A stretch of 20,154 bases of DNA, from NCBI GenBank assembly GCA_038893995.1, contig JAWAQK010000046.1:1-20154 (forward strand), written 5' to 3'. The DNA is from Candidatus Thorarchaeota archaeon. GTDB lineage: Archaea > Asgardarchaeota > Thorarchaeia > Thorarchaeales > Thorarchaeaceae. Below are positions 8,203 to 16,319 of this stretch, piece by piece. Every line of letters starts with the position of its first letter. Positions within the stretch are counted from its first letter, which is position 1. The position numbers and the translations under genes were made by a program. The notes under the pieces are model-generated. The model was not told the origin of the DNA. It ran no database searches and saw only the letters and a program-made list of their open reading frames with translations.

Positions 8203-8895
8203 TTGAGGATCACACTCGACAAGTTGAACCGTCTCGATGGTCAGACCTGTTTCATCTGTGGAAAGTACCTGCTGAACTATACCCCCGGTGACCTTGCCTA
8301 TGAACAGATTGTGCTGGGAGGTCCTAGAAAGGCAAAACCTGAGAGGTATCATCTTTTCCAGTGTCCCGGCTGTGGGCGAATCGGACACAAGAGATGCTGG
8401 TACGAACACGCCGACAAGCCTGTCGGTGCAGGTCTGTTCAGGGGACCAAAGGGTTTTGAGATGAAGTGCCCCATCTGCGGACATCTGATCGCACCTCTGA
8501 GGAAGGATAAGACCGACTGGCGGAAGGGCTACGAGATCCCTGGCCATCCTGATAGTGAGCTACTCGAGCTCTACATTGCGGACGTGAGCCAGTACAAGGC
8601 CAGTTCATTCATTGGGAAAATTGGTGCTGCAATCGGGGGGTTTGTGAAAGCAGTTTCGGTGGGGTTCAGCAGCCTGACACCGGCAGAACGAAGCTCCATA
8701 CAGGCCGCTGCAGACAGGAGTGGGCAGTCGATGTCGGACGTTCAGGACCGGGTCTTTCGACTCAACATCAGTCCTCAAGAGAGAACTCAGCTGCGGGAAC
8801 TGAAGTGCCAGCACTGTGGAGCACGGTTGCCTACACCTGGCCAGTTCGACGACGCTATAATCTGTGAGCACTGCAACACGGCTCATCTACTGTGA
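8203..8895 (+). CDS. Zinc-finger protein: N-terminal C4HC3 (PHD/RINGv-like) finger plus C-terminal C4 zinc ribbon
   Basis: CFIC ... CPGCGRIGHKRCW ... CPIC (C-x2-C, C-x2-C-x4-H-x2-C, C-x2-C) and CQHC-x15-CEHC at the C-terminus. TTG start with GAGGT at 8190-8194. Confidence 0.75.
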   Translation: MRITLDKLNRLDGQTCFICGKYLLNYTPGDLAYEQIVLGGPRKAKPERYHLFQCPGCGRIGHKRCWYEHADKPVGAGLFRGPKGFEMKCPICGHLIAPLRKDKTDWRKGYEIPGHPDSELLELYIADVSQYKASSFIGKIGAAIGGFVKAVSVGFSSLTPAERSSIQAAADRSGQSMSDVQDRVFRLNISPQERTQLRELKCQHCGARLPTPGQFDDAIICEHCNTAHLL

Positions 8896-9119: not shown

Positions 9120-9422
9120 CTAGTAGACTTCCCGGGGACTGCGAGTCAGCCGCTCCGGCAGTTGTCCTCCCTCGCCGACCACCTCAAGTTCGTGTCCTCG
9201 GCCGTAACGACCGCCATCCTTGGCAAGAAAACCGGTCTTGGATATACCTTGTGCCTGCCTCTCTGCAGTCCTGCGAGTGATCATACTGACACCATTGGGA
9301 ATCATCATCTTGAGCTTCTTCTGAGTATCGTCTATGATCAGTAGTATCGAGTCGTCAGACGACGATCGAGTAGTCTCCTGAAACTGAGAGTTCTTCTCAT
9401 TGAACTCGAGATAGATTGGCAT
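9120..9422 (-). CDS. Single-domain gelsolin-like protein (Asgard-type putative actin regulator)
   Basis: 100 aa with GGAGGT RBS. DDSILLIIDDTQKKLKMMIPNGVSMITRRTAERQAQGI...LEVVGEGGQLPERL follows the gelsolin-repeat layout: two strands, long helix, strand, E-G-x-x-x-P. The CDS is well supported; the family call is pattern-based. Confidence 0.55.
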   Translation of the reverse strand: MPIYLEFNEKNSQFQETTRSSSDDSILLIIDDTQKKLKMMIPNGVSMITRRTAERQAQGISKTGFLAKDGGRYGRGHELEVVGEGGQLPERLTRSPREVY

Positions 9423-9556: not shown

Positions 9557-11791
9557 TCATCTCCATTCACTGTCACTCTTTGGAAGCGTATCCTTCGGAG
9601 GCTCAGTCTTCTCGTATTCCTTCACCAGCTCGACCACGCCTGGCACCCAGTCGAGTCCGAGTTCACGGATCTTTGCGAGAGTCGGGACACCGTTACGAGT
9701 CCATCCCCTGCGCCTGTAGGTCGCGTCGGTGAGCAGTCTGTATTGTTCCTCCCTGAATGAACGTAGGGCCGCGATCTTGTCACGTGTGCTCATCTTTGAG
9801 CAATCGATCCCACACTTCTCCTTGAGCTGGGCGTCGTACCTCTCTCTCCGACTCTCGTACTCCCACTCCGTCACGGGACCCATGCTACGGTAGGGTGGGT
9901 TTGAGTCGTGGACTCTGAGCCCCTTGCCCTGTCTGATGTTGAACAGACGCTGAAAGTTGTAGACCTTTTCGCTCATCTTGATGAGGTCGTTCCCGGTTAC
10001 TTGCTTTCCTGTCATGGCCGTGTAGAATCTTGCATAGAACTCAACGTGCTTGGGCACCTTGGCTGGTTCCGCGCTCTGCTTGTTATCGGCAGGCACGACG
10101 TCGTTCCATGGGAGCTTGCAGAGACCATTCAGTCCGAACCATGTCCTCCACAGTGGGAAGTAGTACAGGGCCTCAGCCTTCTTCTCGAACGTCGGTAGGT
10201 ACTTGTGCACCATGTCCATGAATATGAGCCAGGCCTCGTCGTGCTGAGGTCCCTTGAGTGTGAGCCCGTATCCCCCCTGCTGGGCCAGGCTCTCCTTGGT
10301 CACGTACTCGCTGTATTCCAGCCCCTTGTGCTCCATCCCGATGTCCTGCATGAATGCCCTATCTACACCGAAGTTCTTGGCAAAGTAGTCCTTCAGATAG
10401 GCAACTCCCTTGCCAAAGTGCTCAGCGCCCCATCCCTTTCCTGAGGCCATCTCGTGGAGAACGGCAAGCACCTCATCTGCAGCTCCCCACTTGAGTCTGT
10501 GACCCCCGGTCGCTCTCTCATCAATCAACCCCTCCTCGTACAACTCCATGACGAAGGCCATCGTGGTCCCAAAGCTTATCGTGTCGATGCCGTAGGTGTC
10601 ACAGTAGTAGTTTATCTCTGCGACGTCATGCGGATCCCACACTGCGATGTTGGAACCACAGCCTGCGATTGTCTCGTACTCCGGGCCGTCAACAACGACC
10701 TGCTGCCCCTTCTTTGGGCCCGTCCGGGGCACAAACCCCTCGATGCAGTGCGAACAGTTTATGGCACAGGGTCTCCAGCAACCGTCCCAGCCCTTGCCTG
10801 TATTCGTGAAGATCTTCTCCCACGTCTCGCCGTAGAGGCTCTTGGCCTGTGGGTCGCTACCTGACCGGAAGTTCCTACATGGCAGCAGATCGAACTCGTC
10901 CATTATGCTGGGAAGGTGACCTGTTCCGATCACCCTCATTCTGTTCTGCTTCGGGTCCAGCTCGAGTATCTCCGACGAGTGCTCACGGCCTACGGCCTTG
11001 ACACCCTCGGGGTCAGCGGGGCCGTTCATCTCGAGAGTGATCTTGTCTCTCTTTGCGACGAGCGCTCTCAGCCTCTTGTCAGCAAAGACCGTGCCAGTGC
11101 CCCCTCTGCCCGCCTGCTTGTAGCGAGGCATGTTACGCCGCATGTCCCACCACGAGAAGTTGAGACATCCCATCCACGCATGTCTTGCCGCGGGCCCAGT
11201 CGCGACTACTGAGATATCGGCCCCTCCCTTCTGGGTATGCCTCTCAGAGAGCACACGCACAAGCTCGTAGGCAGTGTCGGGTAGCCCTGATGCGTCGAGT
11301 ATCTGGATCCTACCCTCATCCCCGTCGATGAACACATAGACATCCCTGTCCGCCTTTCCCTGGATCGCGATGGCGTCGAATCCAGCAAACTTCAGGTTGG
11401 GCCCAAAGTAGCCCCCGACATTGCAGTCGATCGGTATCCCAGTCTGTGGCGAGATTGTCGTCACGATGGACTTACCCGTGCCAGGATACTGAGTGACTCC
11501 ACCCAGGGGGCCTGAGGCTATGCACAGTACGTTCTCTGGGTCAGACCATTTCACGACTCGGTCCGATGGCATGAGTGTCCACATGAGGTAGAGGTCAAAC
11601 CCCTTGCCACCATTGAAAGTATCAATGGCCCTCTGGTCCAGAGGCCTGATCTCTATGGACAGTCTTGTCAGATCAACGTAGAGAACCTGACGCGCGTATC
11701 CGTGCTTCAGCTGGGGAACCTGATAGGCGAGCTCTCTCAGCGACACTGTACTCACTCCCGTTGGCACCTGCTGTTGCTCACCTGCTTCCAA
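9557..11791 (-). CDS. Tungsten-dependent aldehyde:ferredoxin oxidoreductase family protein (AOR/WOR)
   Basis: LYVDLT, PENVLCIASGPL, SPQTG, NLKFAGFDAIAIQGKA, AGRGGTG, CxxPCxxxC Fe-S motif, GPEYET, CDTYGIDTIS and RRGWTRNGVPT...LGL. TTG start. Subfamily and substrate cannot be determined here. Confidence 0.93.
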   Translation of the reverse strand: MEAGEQQQVPTGVSTVSLRELAYQVPQLKHGYARQVLYVDLTRLSIEIRPLDQRAIDTFNGGKGFDLYLMWTLMPSDRVVKWSDPENVLCIASGPLGGVTQYPGTGKSIVTTISPQTGIPIDCNVGGYFGPNLKFAGFDAIAIQGKADRDVYVFIDGDEGRIQILDASGLPDTAYELVRVLSERHTQKGGADISVVATGPAARHAWMGCLNFSWWDMRRNMPRYKQAGRGGTGTVFADKRLRALVAKRDKITLEMNGPADPEGVKAVGREHSSEILELDPKQNRMRVIGTGHLPSIMDEFDLLPCRNFRSGSDPQAKSLYGETWEKIFTNTGKGWDGCWRPCAINCSHCIEGFVPRTGPKKGQQVVVDGPEYETIAGCGSNIAVWDPHDVAEINYYCDTYGIDTISFGTTMAFVMELYEEGLIDERATGGHRLKWGAADEVLAVLHEMASGKGWGAEHFGKGVAYLKDYFAKNFGVDRAFMQDIGMEHKGLEYSEYVTKESLAQQGGYGLTLKGPQHDEAWLIFMDMVHKYLPTFEKKAEALYYFPLWRTWFGLNGLCKLPWNDVVPADNKQSAEPAKVPKHVEFYARFYTAMTGKQVTGNDLIKMSEKVYNFQRLFNIRQGKGLRVHDSNPPYRSMGPVTEWEYESRRERYDAQLKEKCGIDCSKMSTRDKIAALRSFREEQYRLLTDATYRRRGWTRNGVPTLAKIRELGLDWVPGVVELVKEYEKTEPPKDTLPKSDSEWR

Positions 11792-11917
11792 CGTCCTTTT
11801 ATTCCTACTGTATCGGCCCCATGATGCTGCTGCTCTCTATGATGCAACCTCATTGTGACGCCATATGGGCCGGCGAAGACTCTCCTATTGGTCCACAGGG
11901 GCAGCCACTACATCCAA

Positions 11918-11935
11918 AGTACATTAATATTGTAG
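11918..11935. promoter_or_regulatory. AT-rich, possibly bidirectional TATA element between the divergent AOR gene and the V4R-roadblock-GTPase operon
   Basis: ACATTAATATTGT at 11921-11933 in the roughly 200-nt divergent gap. Confidence 0.4.
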
Positions 11936-11996
11936 GCCGTGGTTCTTTCTATTGCCCCGCGCCCCACAGAACTGCCCCCATCATGAGGTGAAACGA

Positions 11997-12644
11997 TTGG
12001 TCAAGACAGTAGAGGCTCCGCCTGAGCTCCATCCTACCATCGAGTCTATAGAAGCCAAGTACGAGGATATCATGAGTAAGGAGCTGAAGTACCTCCCTGA
12101 GAAGAGCAGGATTCAGCTCGTGGGCGAGAACGTGATGTTCATCGGCCTAAAGTCCATCGGAATATCTCTCAAGGACGAGTTGGACAGTGTCCTCGGAGTG
12201 TCCGGCAGAAACATAGTAATATACCGTCTGGGTCAGGCCTTCGGTCGTAGCGAGGCACAGCGTCTACTGCCGATCCTCGGATACACCGACCCTGTACGGA
12301 GGCTGCTGGCAGGACCGATCTGGGCTGCCTACTCCGGTTTCGTGAGGGTACGGCTGTTGCCGGGCTCGAATGTGGCGTCAGACGAGAACTACTTCTTGTT
12401 CTACGAGCATCCGGACAACTTCGAGGCTCAGCTGTGGAAGGCCGCAGGTAGGACTTCCCATGACCCGGTCTGTCATTTCAACGCCGGCTACTCTTCCGGC
12501 TGGTGTTCGGTGGCGACTGGACTTGAGCTGGACGCAGAGGAGGTCATGTGTGAGGCTGCAGGCCACAAGGTATGCCGATTCATAATGTACCCCAGCAGTA
12601 AACGTCTGCTGTATCAGGAGAAACTCGACGAATACAGGAAGTAG
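11997..12644 (+). CDS. Stand-alone XylR_N/V4R ligand-binding domain protein
   Basis: Start reassigned to TTG 11997 (GAGGTGA at 11985-11991; in frame with the tracked 11952 ORF). YRLGQAFGRSEA, AGP, NFEA and PVCHFNAGYSSGWCS...AEEVMCEAAGHKVCRF, with the C/E/C/C zinc site typical of XylR/DmpR/MopR sensor domains. No AAA+ or HTH domain. Confidence 0.9.
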   Translation: MVKTVEAPPELHPTIESIEAKYEDIMSKELKYLPEKSRIQLVGENVMFIGLKSIGISLKDELDSVLGVSGRNIVIYRLGQAFGRSEAQRLLPILGYTDPVRRLLAGPIWAAYSGFVRVRLLPGSNVASDENYFLFYEHPDNFEAQLWKAAGRTSHDPVCHFNAGYSSGWCSVATGLELDAEEVMCEAAGHKVCRFIMYPSSKRLLYQEKLDEYRK

Positions 12645-12656
12645 AGGTGACTGGAG

Positions 12657-13019
12657 ATGAGTGCAAAGATTCAGAAGCTGGAACAGATTCTCAACAACCT
12701 GATTGCAAACAGTGAAGCAGACGGATGCGCCCTCGTCAACGACAAGGGCCAGATCATGGTGGCACAGCTCAGACAGGGCGTGGATCAGAAGGCCATATCT
12801 GCAATGGCCACTGCTCTCATGTCAATCGGCATACGGGTCGGTGAGGCCCTCGAGGCGGGTGCACCGAGGACCATTGTCATCGAGGGGAAGGACAAGACGA
12901 TCATTCTCATGAGCATAGGCACGAATTCGTTGATCGCCACTGCTCCTGCAAATGCTAGGATCGGGCTTGTCGACTTCGAGATGACGAAGGCGGCCCAGGA
13001 GATCACAGGAGTACTGTGA
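12657..13019 (+). CDS. Roadblock/LC7 (MglB-like) protein 1
   Basis: 120 aa. Helix, then CALVNDKGQIM, AISAMATALMSIG, IVIEGKDKTIIL and IGLVDFEM. GAGGTGA RBS at 12644-12650. Confidence 0.92.
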   Translation: MSAKIQKLEQILNNLIANSEADGCALVNDKGQIMVAQLRQGVDQKAISAMATALMSIGIRVGEALEAGAPRTIVIEGKDKTIILMSIGTNSLIATAPANARIGLVDFEMTKAAQEITGVL

Positions 13020-13056
13020 TAGTGCAGAGGCCTGCACCCCGACGAAGGACTCAGAA

Positions 13057-13707
13057 ATGACGACCCCTTATCGCCTGAAGACCTACGACTACAAGGTCTA
13101 CGTCACCGGACCATTTCAGGCCGGAAAGACGACGCTGATCCACACGCTAGATCCTCATGCGATCTCGGTGGAGCGTGACCTCAGGGAAGAGTGGCGTGGC
13201 GAGAAGGCGACCACCACGACTGGGTTCGACCTAGGTCGTGTCGTCTGGGTCAGGAAAGAGCTGGCCCAGGCAGGTCTGATAGTGCCGAAGAAGGAGTACA
13301 GCATGGAGTCGTCAGAGTACAACGGCTGGTTGACGAGGGAGATAGAGCTTCGAGGAGTTCCAGGACAGCTTCACTTCAAGTTTGTCCGAGACACCATGAG
13401 GGCCAACACCGACGGAATACTGTTCATAGTGGACTCATCGGACCCCGGCATGATCGGCGATGCAGTGGCCATCCTTGCTGAAACGAGGGCGGCCCACAGC
13501 GACATACCAATAGAGATCATAGCAAACAAACAGGACCGGCCCGACGCCTCTCCTCCAGAGACCGTAGCACTCTGGCTAGGGGTCGAGCGCGCCACGCCGA
13601 TGTCAGCAAAGGACAGGCAGTCATGCAAGGATGCACTCACGATGCTGCTCAAGAAGATAGAGGCTGCAGCGGGCAGTTCAGCTTCCCAGATGGGAGAGGG
13701 CAACTGA
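13057..13707 (+). CDS. Small GTPase, MglA/CvnD-like
   Basis: G1 GPFQAGKTT, G2 TTTGFD, G3 GVPGQ (the non-DxxG form typical of MglA/CvnD), G4 NKQD and G5 SAK. Confidence 0.92.
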   Translation: MTTPYRLKTYDYKVYVTGPFQAGKTTLIHTLDPHAISVERDLREEWRGEKATTTTGFDLGRVVWVRKELAQAGLIVPKKEYSMESSEYNGWLTREIELRGVPGQLHFKFVRDTMRANTDGILFIVDSSDPGMIGDAVAILAETRAAHSDIPIEIIANKQDRPDASPPETVALWLGVERATPMSAKDRQSCKDALTMLLKKIEAAAGSSASQMGEGN

Positions 13708-13722
13708 GAGAGGAATGAATGA

Positions 13723-14181
13723 ATGATGAACGACACGGGAGAGATCGTAGGCCCCGGTGCAATAGTCACAAGGCTCCTCGGCGAGTTTGCGGCCCGAGTC
13801 CCTGTCTGGTCCGTCACCGCGTTTACGGTGGACGGGTATGTTGTGGGAAACAAACTATCAGAGGACCGTATTCCCGAGACAGTGGCACCAGTGATAAGCT
13901 CGATGTCTGCCGGGCTAATAACGATAGCAGAGGACTTCATACGTCTTGTCGATGGCGCCAAGGTCTTCGGGCAGATTCTGGTTGATTCGAGGGATGCACA
14001 GGGTGGCCTCGCGTTCTCTATAATACTCAGACACGTGGCACAGAACCTTCTGCTGAGCTGCATATTCCCACACTCGACCCCACTGGGGCTGGTCACATTC
14101 GAGATCGAGACCTTGTGTCAAGAGCTGTCAGAGGCAGTAAGAGGCTGGGACACAAAACTACACGAACAGAGCTTGACGTGA
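13723..14181 (+). CDS. Roadblock/LC7-like protein 2 (divergent)
   Basis: VTAFTVDGYVV, VISSMSAGLITIAE, QILVD and PLGLVTFEIETL match the roadblock pattern. Lies within the operon. Confidence 0.8.
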   Translation: MMNDTGEIVGPGAIVTRLLGEFAARVPVWSVTAFTVDGYVVGNKLSEDRIPETVAPVISSMSAGLITIAEDFIRLVDGAKVFGQILVDSRDAQGGLAFSIILRHVAQNLLLSCIFPHSTPLGLVTFEIETLCQELSEAVRGWDTKLHEQSLT

Positions 14182-14194
14182 GGAGGCGGGCCAC

Positions 14195-14617
14195 ATGAGT
14201 GTCGGTCGTGGACAGAGACTCAATGATACGCTGAGAGATGTGTTTAGAGGGACCTCTGAGACAGTCCGTTGGTGTATCGTGACCAACGAGAGAGGCCTGA
14301 TAGTCGCGTCGATCACCGATATCGGACCTCAAGAGGAAAAACTTGCAGCAATGGCCTCTCTTCTCTCGGAGACCTCCAAGAGAATCTCGACCAATATTGA
14401 GGGTGGTAAGTTTGACACCGCCAACATCGAGTTCTCGGGCCACCGGATGTCGATGGCCGAGTTTCCAGTGCGGGGTCGACCGTTTCGTATTGCAGTAGTT
14501 ACCTCGCAGGCAAGACCCGCCGGACTCATGAATAGGCTTAGGAGACTCAGGCACCCGGGTGTCACGAAGCTGCTGAGTACAGCGGCGGTCCGAATTGCAC
14601 AGATACTTGAGGAATGA
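14195..14617 (+). CDS. Roadblock/LC7 protein 3 with polybasic insertion
   Basis: CIVTNERGLIVAS, KLAAMASLLSETSKRI and ANIEF. GAGGAGG RBS at 14180-14186. Confidence 0.85.
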   Translation: MSVGRGQRLNDTLRDVFRGTSETVRWCIVTNERGLIVASITDIGPQEEKLAAMASLLSETSKRISTNIEGGKFDTANIEFSGHRMSMAEFPVRGRPFRIAVVTSQARPAGLMNRLRRLRHPGVTKLLSTAAVRIAQILEE

Positions 14618-14637
14618 GTGGAGGGTCACACTGAATC

Positions 14638-15006
14638 ATGAGCAGTCGGATAGTTGAACTGTCAATGGTCCTGAGGGAGTTGGACCAACGATGCGGTCTA
14701 TTTGGTTCAGCGCTCGTGAATGAGAAGGGTCAGCTGATGTCATCGTCTCTACCGCAGGGTGTAGACGAGAGGGCCATCTCTGCGATGGCTGCTTCTATGC
14801 TCTCGATCTCCAGGAGAGTGTCGGAGGAACTGGGGTGCGGAGAGCCACAGTCAATAGTCCTTGAGGGCCAACGGAAGCTGATCGTGATGACCCTCGTGAG
14901 CAACCTAGTTCTTGTTGGCATGGCGAGGGTCGATGCAGAGGTGTCCCTGATCGGTTTCGAGATGGACGAAGCGGCCGCTCGAGTAAGACTCGTTCTGGGT
15001 GCATGA
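14638..15006 (+). CDS. Roadblock/LC7 (MglB-like) protein 4, close paralogue of protein 1
   Basis: SALVNEKGQLM, QGVDERAISAMAASMLSIS, IVLEG and LIGFEM. GGAGG RBS at 14619-14623. Confidence 0.92.
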   Translation: MSSRIVELSMVLRELDQRCGLFGSALVNEKGQLMSSSLPQGVDERAISAMAASMLSISRRVSEELGCGEPQSIVLEGQRKLIVMTLVSNLVLVGMARVDAEVSLIGFEMDEAAARVRLVLGA

Positions 15007-15128
15007 GCTCGATCAGGTTCACAGTATGTCTTGGTTCGTAGACCGGTCCTGCAGGCCGATCTAGTGTGTTGTGGTCCGAGTGTGCTCGGGACCTCGCCGT
15101 TCTCACCCTGGTCGTCAACTGTCTCCAA

Positions 15129-15173
15129 TCAGCTGAACATGTTCAAGACAGTGTCAGCTGGACATGCTTAAAT
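15129..15173 (+). promoter_or_regulatory. Operator-like repeats and TATA-like box
   Basis: Direct repeat TCAGCTG(A/G)ACATG at 15129-15141 and 15154-15166. Perfect palindrome TGAACATGTTCA at 15134-15145. TTAAAT at 15168-15173. Confidence 0.5.
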
Positions 15174-15491
15174 CAAGATCATGCATAGGGAGAATCACAG
15201 CCGCACCGCAGTGATGAGAGTGTTGTCTCCTCGGCCCCCAGGCTCCAGATCTAGACGTCCGGTGTGTGAGGGCTCTCTCCTTGAATGCTCAAATGATCCC
15301 GTGGAATGGCATCTGCATCCTCACTACTTGTATTGTCAGAGGAGTCGTATCTCGCGGGCCTATAGCGACTATCGTTCCTCCCCTACTTCGCGGGCCAGAT
15401 GCTGTGGATGCAGAATGAGAGCCTCTAGAATGATACAGTCCTGGCATGAATTGGTGCCAAACATGCAGCACAGTCATGGAGGTGGACGGGA

Positions 15492-16319
15492 ATGAGCGAT
15501 CTGACAGTGTTGAAGATTGGGGGATCGCTCCTCACTGACAAGACGCGTGATGAAGGTCTGAGGCCACACATACTGGATTCGTTGGCCGAGGAGCTGAGAC
15601 AGTGTCTTGACGATGGGCTACTCGAGTCGATCGTGATCGTACACGGCGTCGGATCCTTTGGGCACCCTCTTGTCATGCGACACGGACTCCACAGGGGTCT
15701 CGTAGGACATCACCAGCTACTGCCCATGTCCATAGTCCAGTCCAGGGTCAACGAACTCAGAGCTGCGTTGGTCAGAAGCCTTCAGGACCACGGGATTCCT
15801 GCATGCCTCCTGCATCCATCGTCCATGGCAGTCTCAGACGGTGGGGCCATCAGCCGATTCTTCGTAGAACCGTTGCAGGGCTTTCTCGGTATGGGTATGG
15901 TACCAGTACTGGGTGGCGACATGTTGGTGGACACGAAGACTGGCATCTCAGTATGTAGTGGCGATCAGCTCGCCGTACTCATCGCGAGGTGGATGCACGC
16001 GGGGCGTCTCATATTTGCATGCGACGTCAGTGGGGTCTATACGGCAGACCCAAAGCTAGATTCTCAGGCCCGGCTGCTACCGGAGATAGACCTGAGCCAG
16101 CTGGACCGGTTGCCTGCCCCAGATGAGTCATCTGATGCCAGTGGTCGAATGTGCGGCAAGCTGAGGTCGATCTCTACTGTGGCGGACCTCATCCGAGAGG
16201 GTCTCGAGGTCTGCCTGCTGAGCATGTTGCAGCGCGGCAATCTGAGGGCGCTATTGTCGGGAGCGCAGGTCGAATGCACAAGAATAGTGTCACATCCGGC
16301 TCAGCTCTTGTCGACCTGA
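15492..16319 (+). CDS. ipk: Isopentenyl phosphate kinase (amino-acid kinase family)
   Basis: LKIGGSLLTDK, VHGVGSFGHP with the IPK-signature His, VPVLGGD, CSGDQL, DVSGVY and DASGRMCGK. GGAGGTG RBS at 15478-15484. Confidence 0.85.
   Translation: MSDLTVLKIGGSLLTDKTRDEGLRPHILDSLAEELRQCLDDGLLESIVIVHGVGSFGHPLVMRHGLHRGLVGHHQLLPMSIVQSRVNELRAALVRSLQDHGIPACLLHPSSMAVSDGGAISRFFVEPLQGFLGMGMVPVLGGDMLVDTKTGISVCSGDQLAVLIARWMHAGRLIFACDVSGVYTADPKLDSQARLLPEIDLSQLDRLPAPDESSDASGRMCGKLRSISTVADLIREGLEVCLLSMLQRGNLRALLSGAQVECTRIVSHPAQLLST

Follow-up and report, generated by a model that had tools for sequence, protein, structure and literature searches.

Asgard archaea encode many small GTPases, roadblock or longin proteins and Bet3/V4R-fold proteins, and which of these cooperate is an open question. 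Whether operons could reveal the partners of the GTPases was asked by Dey et al. (2016, PMC4917890). According to Tran et al. (2024, PMC10933270), the GTPase genes of MK-D1 as a rule do not share an operon with genes for roadblock, longin or TRAPPC3 proteins, which makes it hard to match GTPases to their regulators. Here we analyse a 20,154-nucleotide stretch of Thorarchaeota DNA, referred to as the window (contig C46; the genome bin measures 2.33 Mb and is 91% complete), which is also contained in two hot-spring metagenome DNA runs from one study. One of these runs may be its source, and no RNA run is listed as containing it. Positions 11997–15006 of its forward strand hold six co-oriented genes, encoding a V4R-domain protein, a small GTPase and four roadblock proteins (RB1 to RB4). 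Do these six genes belong together, and if so, what kind of system do they encode? Our best explanation, to which we assign a probability of roughly 0.6, is that the operon is a sensor-coupled G-protein switch of the MglA/MglB type. The operon family to which it belongs is an exception to the MK-D1 pattern, since it ties one MglA-type GTPase to three or four roadblock proteins and a V4R-fold protein, and it supplies a small set of soluble, testable candidate partners for an archaeal G protein. We found no paper describing a V4R-led GTPase operon with four roadblock genes.

The six-gene operon and its GTPase

The genes follow each other in the order V4R, RB1, GTPase, RB2, RB3, RB4, with gaps of 12, 37, 15, 13 and 20 nt from 5’ to 3’. 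A GAGG-type ribosome-binding site lies upstream of five of the six starts, and the GTPase start has a weaker GAAGGA. About 66 nt 5’ of the V4R start, a TATA-like AT-rich box (TTAATATT, 11924–11931, forward strand) reads as a candidate archaeal promoter; a scan of 11600–15600 for sigma-70 promoters and intrinsic terminators gave no excess over shuffled sequences, with a bacterial model that is not applicable to archaea. Pfam and domain searches detected no kinase or HTH domain among the six products, and none of them contains a membrane-span-like stretch, the highest 19-residue Kyte-Doolittle mean being 1.73, in the core strand of a roadblock. The initial annotation, made from the sequence alone, was accurate in all these respects: it had placed six co-oriented reading frames at these coordinates and in this order, with gaps of 12–37 nt and ribosome-binding sites at most starts, and had seen no kinase, HTH regulator or transmembrane protein among them. 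Besides the window, eight contigs or more show the six genes in this order amid differing flanking genes; two of these contigs end within the block, and three public ones among them have quite different flanks. Because the order recurs elsewhere amid different flanks, the block is more than a chance arrangement, and judged by order, gaps and recurrence the six genes are a real, conserved operon.

To follow this arrangement through the phylum, we searched 400 of its genomes with the GTPase, fetched about 60 flanks and labelled their open reading frames with iterated profiles; this search supersedes an earlier one that had used the GTPase alone and returned five loci. The core order RB1-GTPase-RB2-RB3 is kept throughout one family (f1) and in four others (f13, f14, f17 and f18). 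In Loki-type loci (f22) the core is rearranged but still linked, as two divergent units, one with the protein that otherwise precedes RB1 (the slot protein, discussed below), RB1, a second RB2-like gene (RB2’) and a long roadblock protein, the other with the GTPase and RB2. Most relatives have three roadblock genes only. From this synteny, the RB1-GTPase-RB2-RB3 core is judged to be old, with its order kept across several Asgard families.

The GTPase (13057–13707, 216 aa) has the motifs GPFQAGKTT (G1), TTTTGFD (G2), GVPGQ (G3), NKQD (G4) and SAK (G5), and an interswitch insertion of about 25 residues between beta-2 and beta-3. In an alignment of 20 Asgard relatives from several families, all five motifs and the insertion are kept. 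The P-loop fits GxxxxGK[ST], with G18, G23 and K24 invariant. In G2, T53 and T54 are invariant and there is no adjacent arginine; G3 has Val in place of the Thr of GTPGQ and no Asp, with G100 and G103 invariant and P102 and Q104 nearly so; and G4, as ANKQD, fits [NT]KxD, with K158 and D160 invariant and N157 nearly so. In MglA groups 2–5, Thr replaces the intrinsic arginine beside the G2 Thr and G3 is GTPGQ; [NT]KxD is kept in groups 1, 4 and 5, and group 2 (CvnD) has NxFD at G4 and DAR at G5 (Wuichet and Sogaard-Andersen, 2015, PMC4316618). The best solved sequence relative of the window GTPase is MglA (3t12, E 2e-7), and the AF2 model (pLDDT 90.7) found as its top Foldseek match 3t1q_A, which is MglA-GppNHp with MglB (E 1e-9), with Arl and Asgard Arf structures closely behind in the fold ranking. 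Motifs and predicted fold together point to an MglA-family GTPase of the groups 2–5 type, outside group 2.

Three other identities were considered for this protein. The Rag reading was rejected: over its 216 aa the protein consists of one G domain and lacks the C-terminal roadblock domain that Rag proteins have, and neither its sequence matches nor the 50 top fold matches listed include a Rag chain. It was rejected as a CvnD, given NKQD and SAK at G4 and G5 where group 2 has NxFD and DAR. The Rab reading was set aside because MglA and Arl/Arf outrank Rab among the matches.

Among known systems, the MglA-MglB(-MglC) switch of Myxococcus xanthus and Thermus thermophilus likewise has a GTPase without the G3 aspartate beside roadblock/MglB genes. 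MglA groups 2–5 (PMC4316618) share with the window GTPase the G2 Thr-Thr and the G3 sequence G(T/V)PGQ, and systems with one GTPase to two MglB proteins are known. The window operon differs from MglA-MglB in its four roadblock genes of three subfamilies, in the interswitch insertion, in its V4R-fold gene and in its Asgard host, and from group 1 MglA in that the GTPase lacks an intrinsic arginine finger. By the criterion of a roadblock gene within four genes, the GTPase counts as coupled to MglB/roadblock genes, all four roadblock genes lying in its operon. For archaeal group 4 MglA no conserved neighbours had been found, in a survey that predates the Asgard genomes (Wuichet and Sogaard-Andersen, PMC4316618).

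The genome also contains a second, orphan GTPase (G000:C8:34082-34678, reverse strand, which is L010:5095-5703:-) with 53% identity to the one in the operon. No roadblock neighbours were detected for it, and its motifs are degenerate, with GVPGS for GVPGQ and ASKQD for ANKQD. Orthologues are present in other Thorarchaeota genomes (L066–L068). From its motifs, this orphan may be unable to hydrolyse GTP.

Roadblock proteins and the V4R protein

That four of the genes encode roadblocks, as the initial annotation had claimed, was confirmed by Pfam for RB1 and RB4, by hhalign for RB2 and RB3 and, for RB2, by the names of its public relatives as well. Against Robl_LC7 (PF03259, cut-off 23 bits), RB1 (12657–13019, 120 aa) scores 36.9 bits and RB4 (14638–15006, 122 aa) 42.7 bits. 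The two are paralogues with 43% identity in alignment. Their relatives of solved structure are the Asgard roadblocks 7f8m, 7yh1 and 9jue, with CvnB5 (3leq) at a greater distance. RB3 (14195–14617, 140 aa) reaches 21.7 bits, just under the cut-off, and RB2 (13723–14181, 152 aa) has no Pfam match; over their full lengths both align with the RB1/RB4 alignment in hhalign (98.7%, E 4e-16 for RB2; 97.6%, E 3e-12 for RB3). Named public relatives of RB2, all of them from Asgard archaea, are called roadblock/LC7. RB2 and RB3 are weakly alike (17%), and from this and the closeness of RB1 to RB4 we count three subfamilies (RB1+RB4, RB2 and RB3) among four proteins that are all, by these profile and sequence comparisons, roadblocks.

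The subfamilies differ in position and in conserved residues. RB1 always lies directly after the V4R-fold slot in relatives, an RB2-type gene is the immediate next gene after the GTPase in the lineages that have one, and RB4 occurs in the clade led by V4R and, sporadically, in further lineages. In RB2, T35, D37 and G38 form an invariant Thr-x-Asp-Gly, and among the roadblocks compared the Asp-Gly pair is invariant in RB2 only; Asp-Gly is the sole conserved feature reported for MglB proteins coupled to group 2–5 MglA (PMC4316618). RB3 has a polybasic stretch before its last helix (14513–14560 of the window), which is present in 18 of 18 aligned orthologues with varying sequence, and also an invariant Arg63 and near-invariant ERG and FR(I/V)G. 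Any of these features might touch a membrane or offer an arginine in trans to a GTPase that lacks its own.

The start codon of the V4R protein (11997–12644, 215 aa) is the TTG at 11997, the position at which all orthologues begin, with M-VKTVEAPPE. It matches Pfam V4R with 40.6 bits and XylR_N with 26 bits, both over the cut-off, and its best solved relatives are the sensor domains of PoxR, CapR/DmpR and MopR (E 4e-9 to 1e-7). With PoxR, MopR and DmpR of the XylR-NtrC family it shares the XylR_N + V4R arrangement and a Cys-Glu-Cys-Cys motif: C159, E182, C185 and C193 align with the PoxR-type zinc site, are invariant in 11 orthologues and are a putative zinc site here. Unlike those proteins, it stands alone and is encoded with a GTPase and roadblocks; a fusion to an AAA+ sigma-54 activator or to an HTH or other DNA-binding domain was not found, the 215 residues containing nothing besides the sensor domain. 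Residues His102 and Trp130 of the PoxR chain, which we take to be those that hold the phenol hydroxyl, align with Ala110 and His138, so the pair is not kept and phenol is an unlikely ligand for the window protein.

A Bet3 identity is not indicated by sequence. The TRAPP family PF04051, which stands for Bet3 at this level, is not matched by the window V4R, whose Pfam matches are V4R and XylR_N instead, and the Thorarchaeota TRAPPC3 structures are unmatched at E 0.01. Those structures belong to a set from the same phylum, Thor TRAPPC3, Thor-RB and Thor-Rab, that covers the same three fold classes and includes relatives of RB1 and RB4 (PMC10933270). The proteins of that set were studied singly, whereas here the three classes are encoded in one operon, with a GTPase of MglA type and a V4R that is not a TRAPPC3 orthologue. 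In the account of V4R by Podar et al. (2008, PMC2253512), GTPase neighbours go unmentioned.

The slot before RB1 and the proposed switch

If the V4R protein is the sensor of this GTPase, its gene would be expected to stay with the cluster in relatives, which the initial annotation had named as a check, and to a large extent it does. V4R orthologues number 12 copies in 11 of 86 family genomes. Half of the copies lie inside the operon (G000, G312, G313, G314, G315 and G323, of genera g1, g2 and g7), and three more are separated from one by 1.4–4.4 kb (G324, G328 and G387, of genera g8 and g15). The V4R-led operons group as a single clade in the tree of the GTPases (support 0.94), nested among Thorarchaeota operons that have a different, Bet3-fold protein in the same slot.

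That slot, immediately before RB1, has three occupants: a 155-aa protein with a Cys microprotein in most lineages, a MarR-like winged-helix (wHTH) protein in some Thorarchaeota, and the zinc-site V4R in the window and its nearest relatives. The 155-aa protein has no Pfam match. Its AF2 model (pLDDT 94) aligns over the whole length with Bet3/TRAPPC3 (VIA Z 11.0, rmsd 3.4, 147 residues), and also with Thor TRAPPC3 (Z 10.5) and MopR/PoxR (Z 9.5); the best alignments are to TRAPPC3/Bet3 chains, some of them from TRAPP-Ypt1 complexes. The model thus argues for a Bet3/V4R fold, and by this reckoning the slot ahead of RB1 nearly always holds a gene of that fold, including in most of the other Asgard lineages. 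One contig carries both the V4R and, upstream, the Bet3-fold protein with its microprotein. A search of the window’s own genome for the Bet3-fold protein came back empty, which in a 91% complete genome is not proof of absence.

The Cys microprotein, of about 40 aa, is encoded between the 155-aa gene and RB1 in sister operons (L054:4408-4555, L058:4419-4552, L059:2874-3002, L084:4429-4563, L072:718-851 and L109:3964-4086) and has three conserved Cys in the pattern DC.HAG...WC.KK...C..YE. It has no counterpart in the window, where the V4R-RB1 gap is 12 nt and the flanks hold no matching small reading frame. Leads for the 155-aa protein in the ESM Atlas were RdxA_C, MJ0207 and, at rank 23, a Thorarchaeota TRAPP-domain cluster. 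Because the Atlas ties it to ‘rubredoxin C-terminal domain’ clusters, the 155-aa protein and the microprotein may be the split form of a fused protein. Away from GTPase operons, V4R-type genes adjoin large PAS-HATPase_c kinase genes at two loci, L099 (G323:C223) and L105 (G336:C167); V4R is thus paired with PAS kinases independently of the GTPase cluster as well.

The contact of the V4R protein with a partner, which the initial annotation supposed, was examined by complex prediction with V4R and two RB1 chains, both given as alignments; V4R was the partner scored. The median score was 0.59, against 0.03 for the best of three controls, with at least 97% agreement in contacts between runs and a partner pLDDT of at least 88. 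Among 80 solved complexes, 58 attain the mark for support, as do 2 of 110 mismatched pairs, and scores of 0.60 or lower include only 7 of the 80 solved complexes, together with both mismatches that passed. The predicted V4R-RB1 contact therefore has weak support. In TRAPP, Bet3-fold subunits touch longin-fold subunits.

Taken as a sensor-coupled switch, the operon would work as follows. Roadblock dimers would control which nucleotide state the GTPase adopts, the role that MglB has towards MglA. The likeliest direct partner would be RB2, because its gene always adjoins that of the GTPase and no other of the four roadblocks keeps the Asp-Gly typical of MglB proteins coupled to groups 2–5; RB2 would probably form its dimer with RB3. 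The adaptor that docks the V4R protein would be RB1 together with the paralogous RB4, and V4R in turn would bind a small, hydrophobic, non-phenol ligand and so bias the switch. Sister operons swap in or add a PAS-histidine-kinase-like protein or a MarR-like regulator, which suggests one GTPase/roadblock core with exchangeable sensor and output genes.

A more ambitious version, which we consider a long shot, is that of a ligand-gated archaeal switch, in which a V4R/Bet3-fold sensor docked on a roadblock dimer tunes the MglA-type GTPase. This would be a prokaryote-style forerunner of the TRAPP-like design of eukaryotes, where a small GTPase is acted on by a Bet3-fold subunit seated on a longin/roadblock platform. 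It might read a lipid or isoprenoid intermediate, a signal that comes to mind because genes for isopentenyl phosphate kinase (IPK) and mevalonate-kinase-like proteins are repeatedly adjacent. Should the V4R-roadblock contact be real, this would be the first prokaryotic Bet3-fold protein acting with a roadblock platform on a GTPase, and would bear on the origin of TRAPP-like and Ragulator-like regulators.

Several findings weigh against a switch led by V4R. The zinc-site V4R is absent from most Thorarchaeota operons of this GTPase/roadblock family, and three of the 12 V4R copies (in G348, in G349 and the second copy in G323) lie away from any such operon on the available contig. The G323 operon reads V4R-GTPase-RB2-RB3-RB4 and lacks RB1, so V4R cannot depend on RB1 alone. 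The window GTPase itself is poorly placed in the tree, where it sits beside the V4R-led clade with poor support. The 155-aa slot protein and the zinc-site V4R have no sequence similarity (hhalign probability 0.9%), and their shared slot could therefore reflect replacement by an analogue and not by a homologue. The V4R-RB1 score falls in the weak band and may echo solved TRAPP complexes. Part of this evidence would suit a V4R that is a passenger, inserted upstream in one Thorarchaeota clade and working alone, perhaps binding or carrying a ligand in a neighbouring metabolic pathway, with the roadblock-GTPase cassette as the functional unit. The stray copies, the many operons without a zinc-site V4R and the weak contact all fit such a passenger, as does the small size of the V4R family, which is restricted to Thorarchaeota with 27 clusters and the 11 of 86 family genomes given above. 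We nevertheless think a passenger unlikely: in every in-operon case the V4R-RB1 gap is 12–13 nt although flanks differ among lineages, nine of the 12 copies are no further than 4.4 kb from an operon of this kind although the genomes measure 2–4 Mb, a different protein of the V4R/Bet3 fold takes up the slot elsewhere, and in a different family (L087, f13) a Pfam V4R gene again stands directly ahead of a roadblock run and GTPase. A kinase-linked system would account for another set of observations. A soluble PAS + HATPase_c gene comes right after the last roadblock in 11 Thorarchaeota sister operons (L054, L056–L060, L062, L064, L048, L103 and L109), MarR-like wHTH genes precede or follow many of these, and Loki-type loci (L079–L081, L092 and L094) have a HATPase_c gene downstream. 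By adding a PAS-HATPase kinase and a wHTH, the sister operons give the family as a whole a conservon-like parts list, and the window operon could be a reduced form of such a system, with the gene for its kinase partner at another locus. Actinobacterial conservons (CvnA-D; Mfp) likewise combine in one operon a kinase-like sensor, a roadblock, a further protein and an MglA-family GTPase (PMC4316618; PMC13343842). The window operon itself has neither kinase nor wHTH; where conservons have a CvnA-type kinase and one roadblock, it has a soluble V4R sensor and several, and its GTPase has the G4 and G5 noted above in place of those of group 2. The kinases of conservons are membrane sensors, unlike the soluble PAS proteins of the sister operons. 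CvnC, a conservon protein of unknown function that we take to be DUF742, has no equivalent in the window operon, and the sister-operon wHTH matches MarR_2 weakly, with DUF742 not appearing. The conservon-like character suggested in the initial annotation accordingly applies to the wider family and not to the window operon or its GTPase, and we consider a reduced conservon improbable.

Comparison with eukaryotic complexes leaves the sensor-coupled switch as our preferred explanation. V4R and Bet3 are of one fold (PMC2253512; PMC10933270), and a proto-TRAPP-like nucleotide exchange factor, in which a Bet3/V4R-fold subunit on a roadblock/longin-like platform acts on the GTPase as a forerunner of the TRAPP core, would account for the alignment of the sister-operon slot protein with TRAPPC3/Bet3 chains, TRAPP-Ypt1 complexes included, and for the weakly supported V4R-RB1 contact. 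Yet that score may stem from the model’s memory of TRAPP, the window V4R is nearer in sequence to bacterial phenol sensors than to Thor TRAPPC3, and the operon offers Robl_LC7 partners where the TRAPP core has longin/sedlin ones and an MglA-type GTPase where it has a Rab. A TRAPP-like arrangement is possible at the level of the fold only, and as an account of the operon it is very unlikely. The initial annotation had further raised a proto-Ragulator. In such a system the four roadblocks would be a LAMTOR2-5-like scaffold on which the GTPase is anchored and activated, as Rag is by Ragulator. Ragulator-Rag does combine several different roadblock-fold subunits with a small GTPase, as this operon does with its four roadblock genes of three subfamilies; RB1 has a weak Pfam match to LAMTOR5 (E 0.024, under the cut-off), and the conserved polybasic stretch of RB3 might touch membranes. 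This proposal fails because the GTPase, a single MglA-type G domain without the C-terminal roadblock domain of Rag and with Rag structures missing from its 50 best listed fold matches, is of another family, and because the operon, all six of whose products are assigned, has no LAMTOR1-like gene. The operon likewise gives no sign of a lysosome-like anchor, most relatives have just three roadblocks, and a pair of MglB genes is nothing new in the MglA systems of prokaryotes, so that we give the proto-Ragulator almost no weight. A conserved Asgard operon that does combine a LAMTOR1-like roadblock with a Rab-like GTPase and DENN has been reported (Liu et al., bioRxiv 10.1101/2020.10.19.343400); it resembles ours in joining a roadblock-superfamily protein to a small GTPase, and ours differs in its GTPase family, its four roadblocks and V4R sensor, and its lack of DENN.

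Neighbouring genes

Upstream of the operon lies a divergent gene for aldehyde:ferredoxin oxidoreductase. Downstream, 485 nt past RB4, is an IPK gene (15492–16319, forward strand; IPPK_Arch 156.8 bits, cut-off 120). An IPK gene comes right after the last roadblock in another Asgard family too (f14, 201.7 bits), and the gene downstream of the V4R-led operon in genus g2 encodes a GHMP kinase whose best match is to mevalonate kinase, under the cut-off. Such IPK or GHMP kinase neighbours were seen at L069:2018-3355:-, L070, L071, L047:2525-3670:-, L053:7063-8181:+, L100:3780-4886:-, L107 and L108. The kinase neighbour is not universal, since L106 has TrpE downstream and L049 a P-type ATPase. The adjacency may reflect either ancient synteny or a connection with the synthesis of isoprenoid lipids.

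The gap between RB4 and the IPK gene (15007–15491) contains a 104-aa open reading frame (15181–15495), which has no family match and is probably not a gene. Elsewhere in the window, a 100-aa reading frame on the reverse strand (9120–9422) is without a family match, and a 230-aa protein encoded on the forward strand (8203–8895) has weak matches to zinc-ribbon and prokaryotic-RING families.

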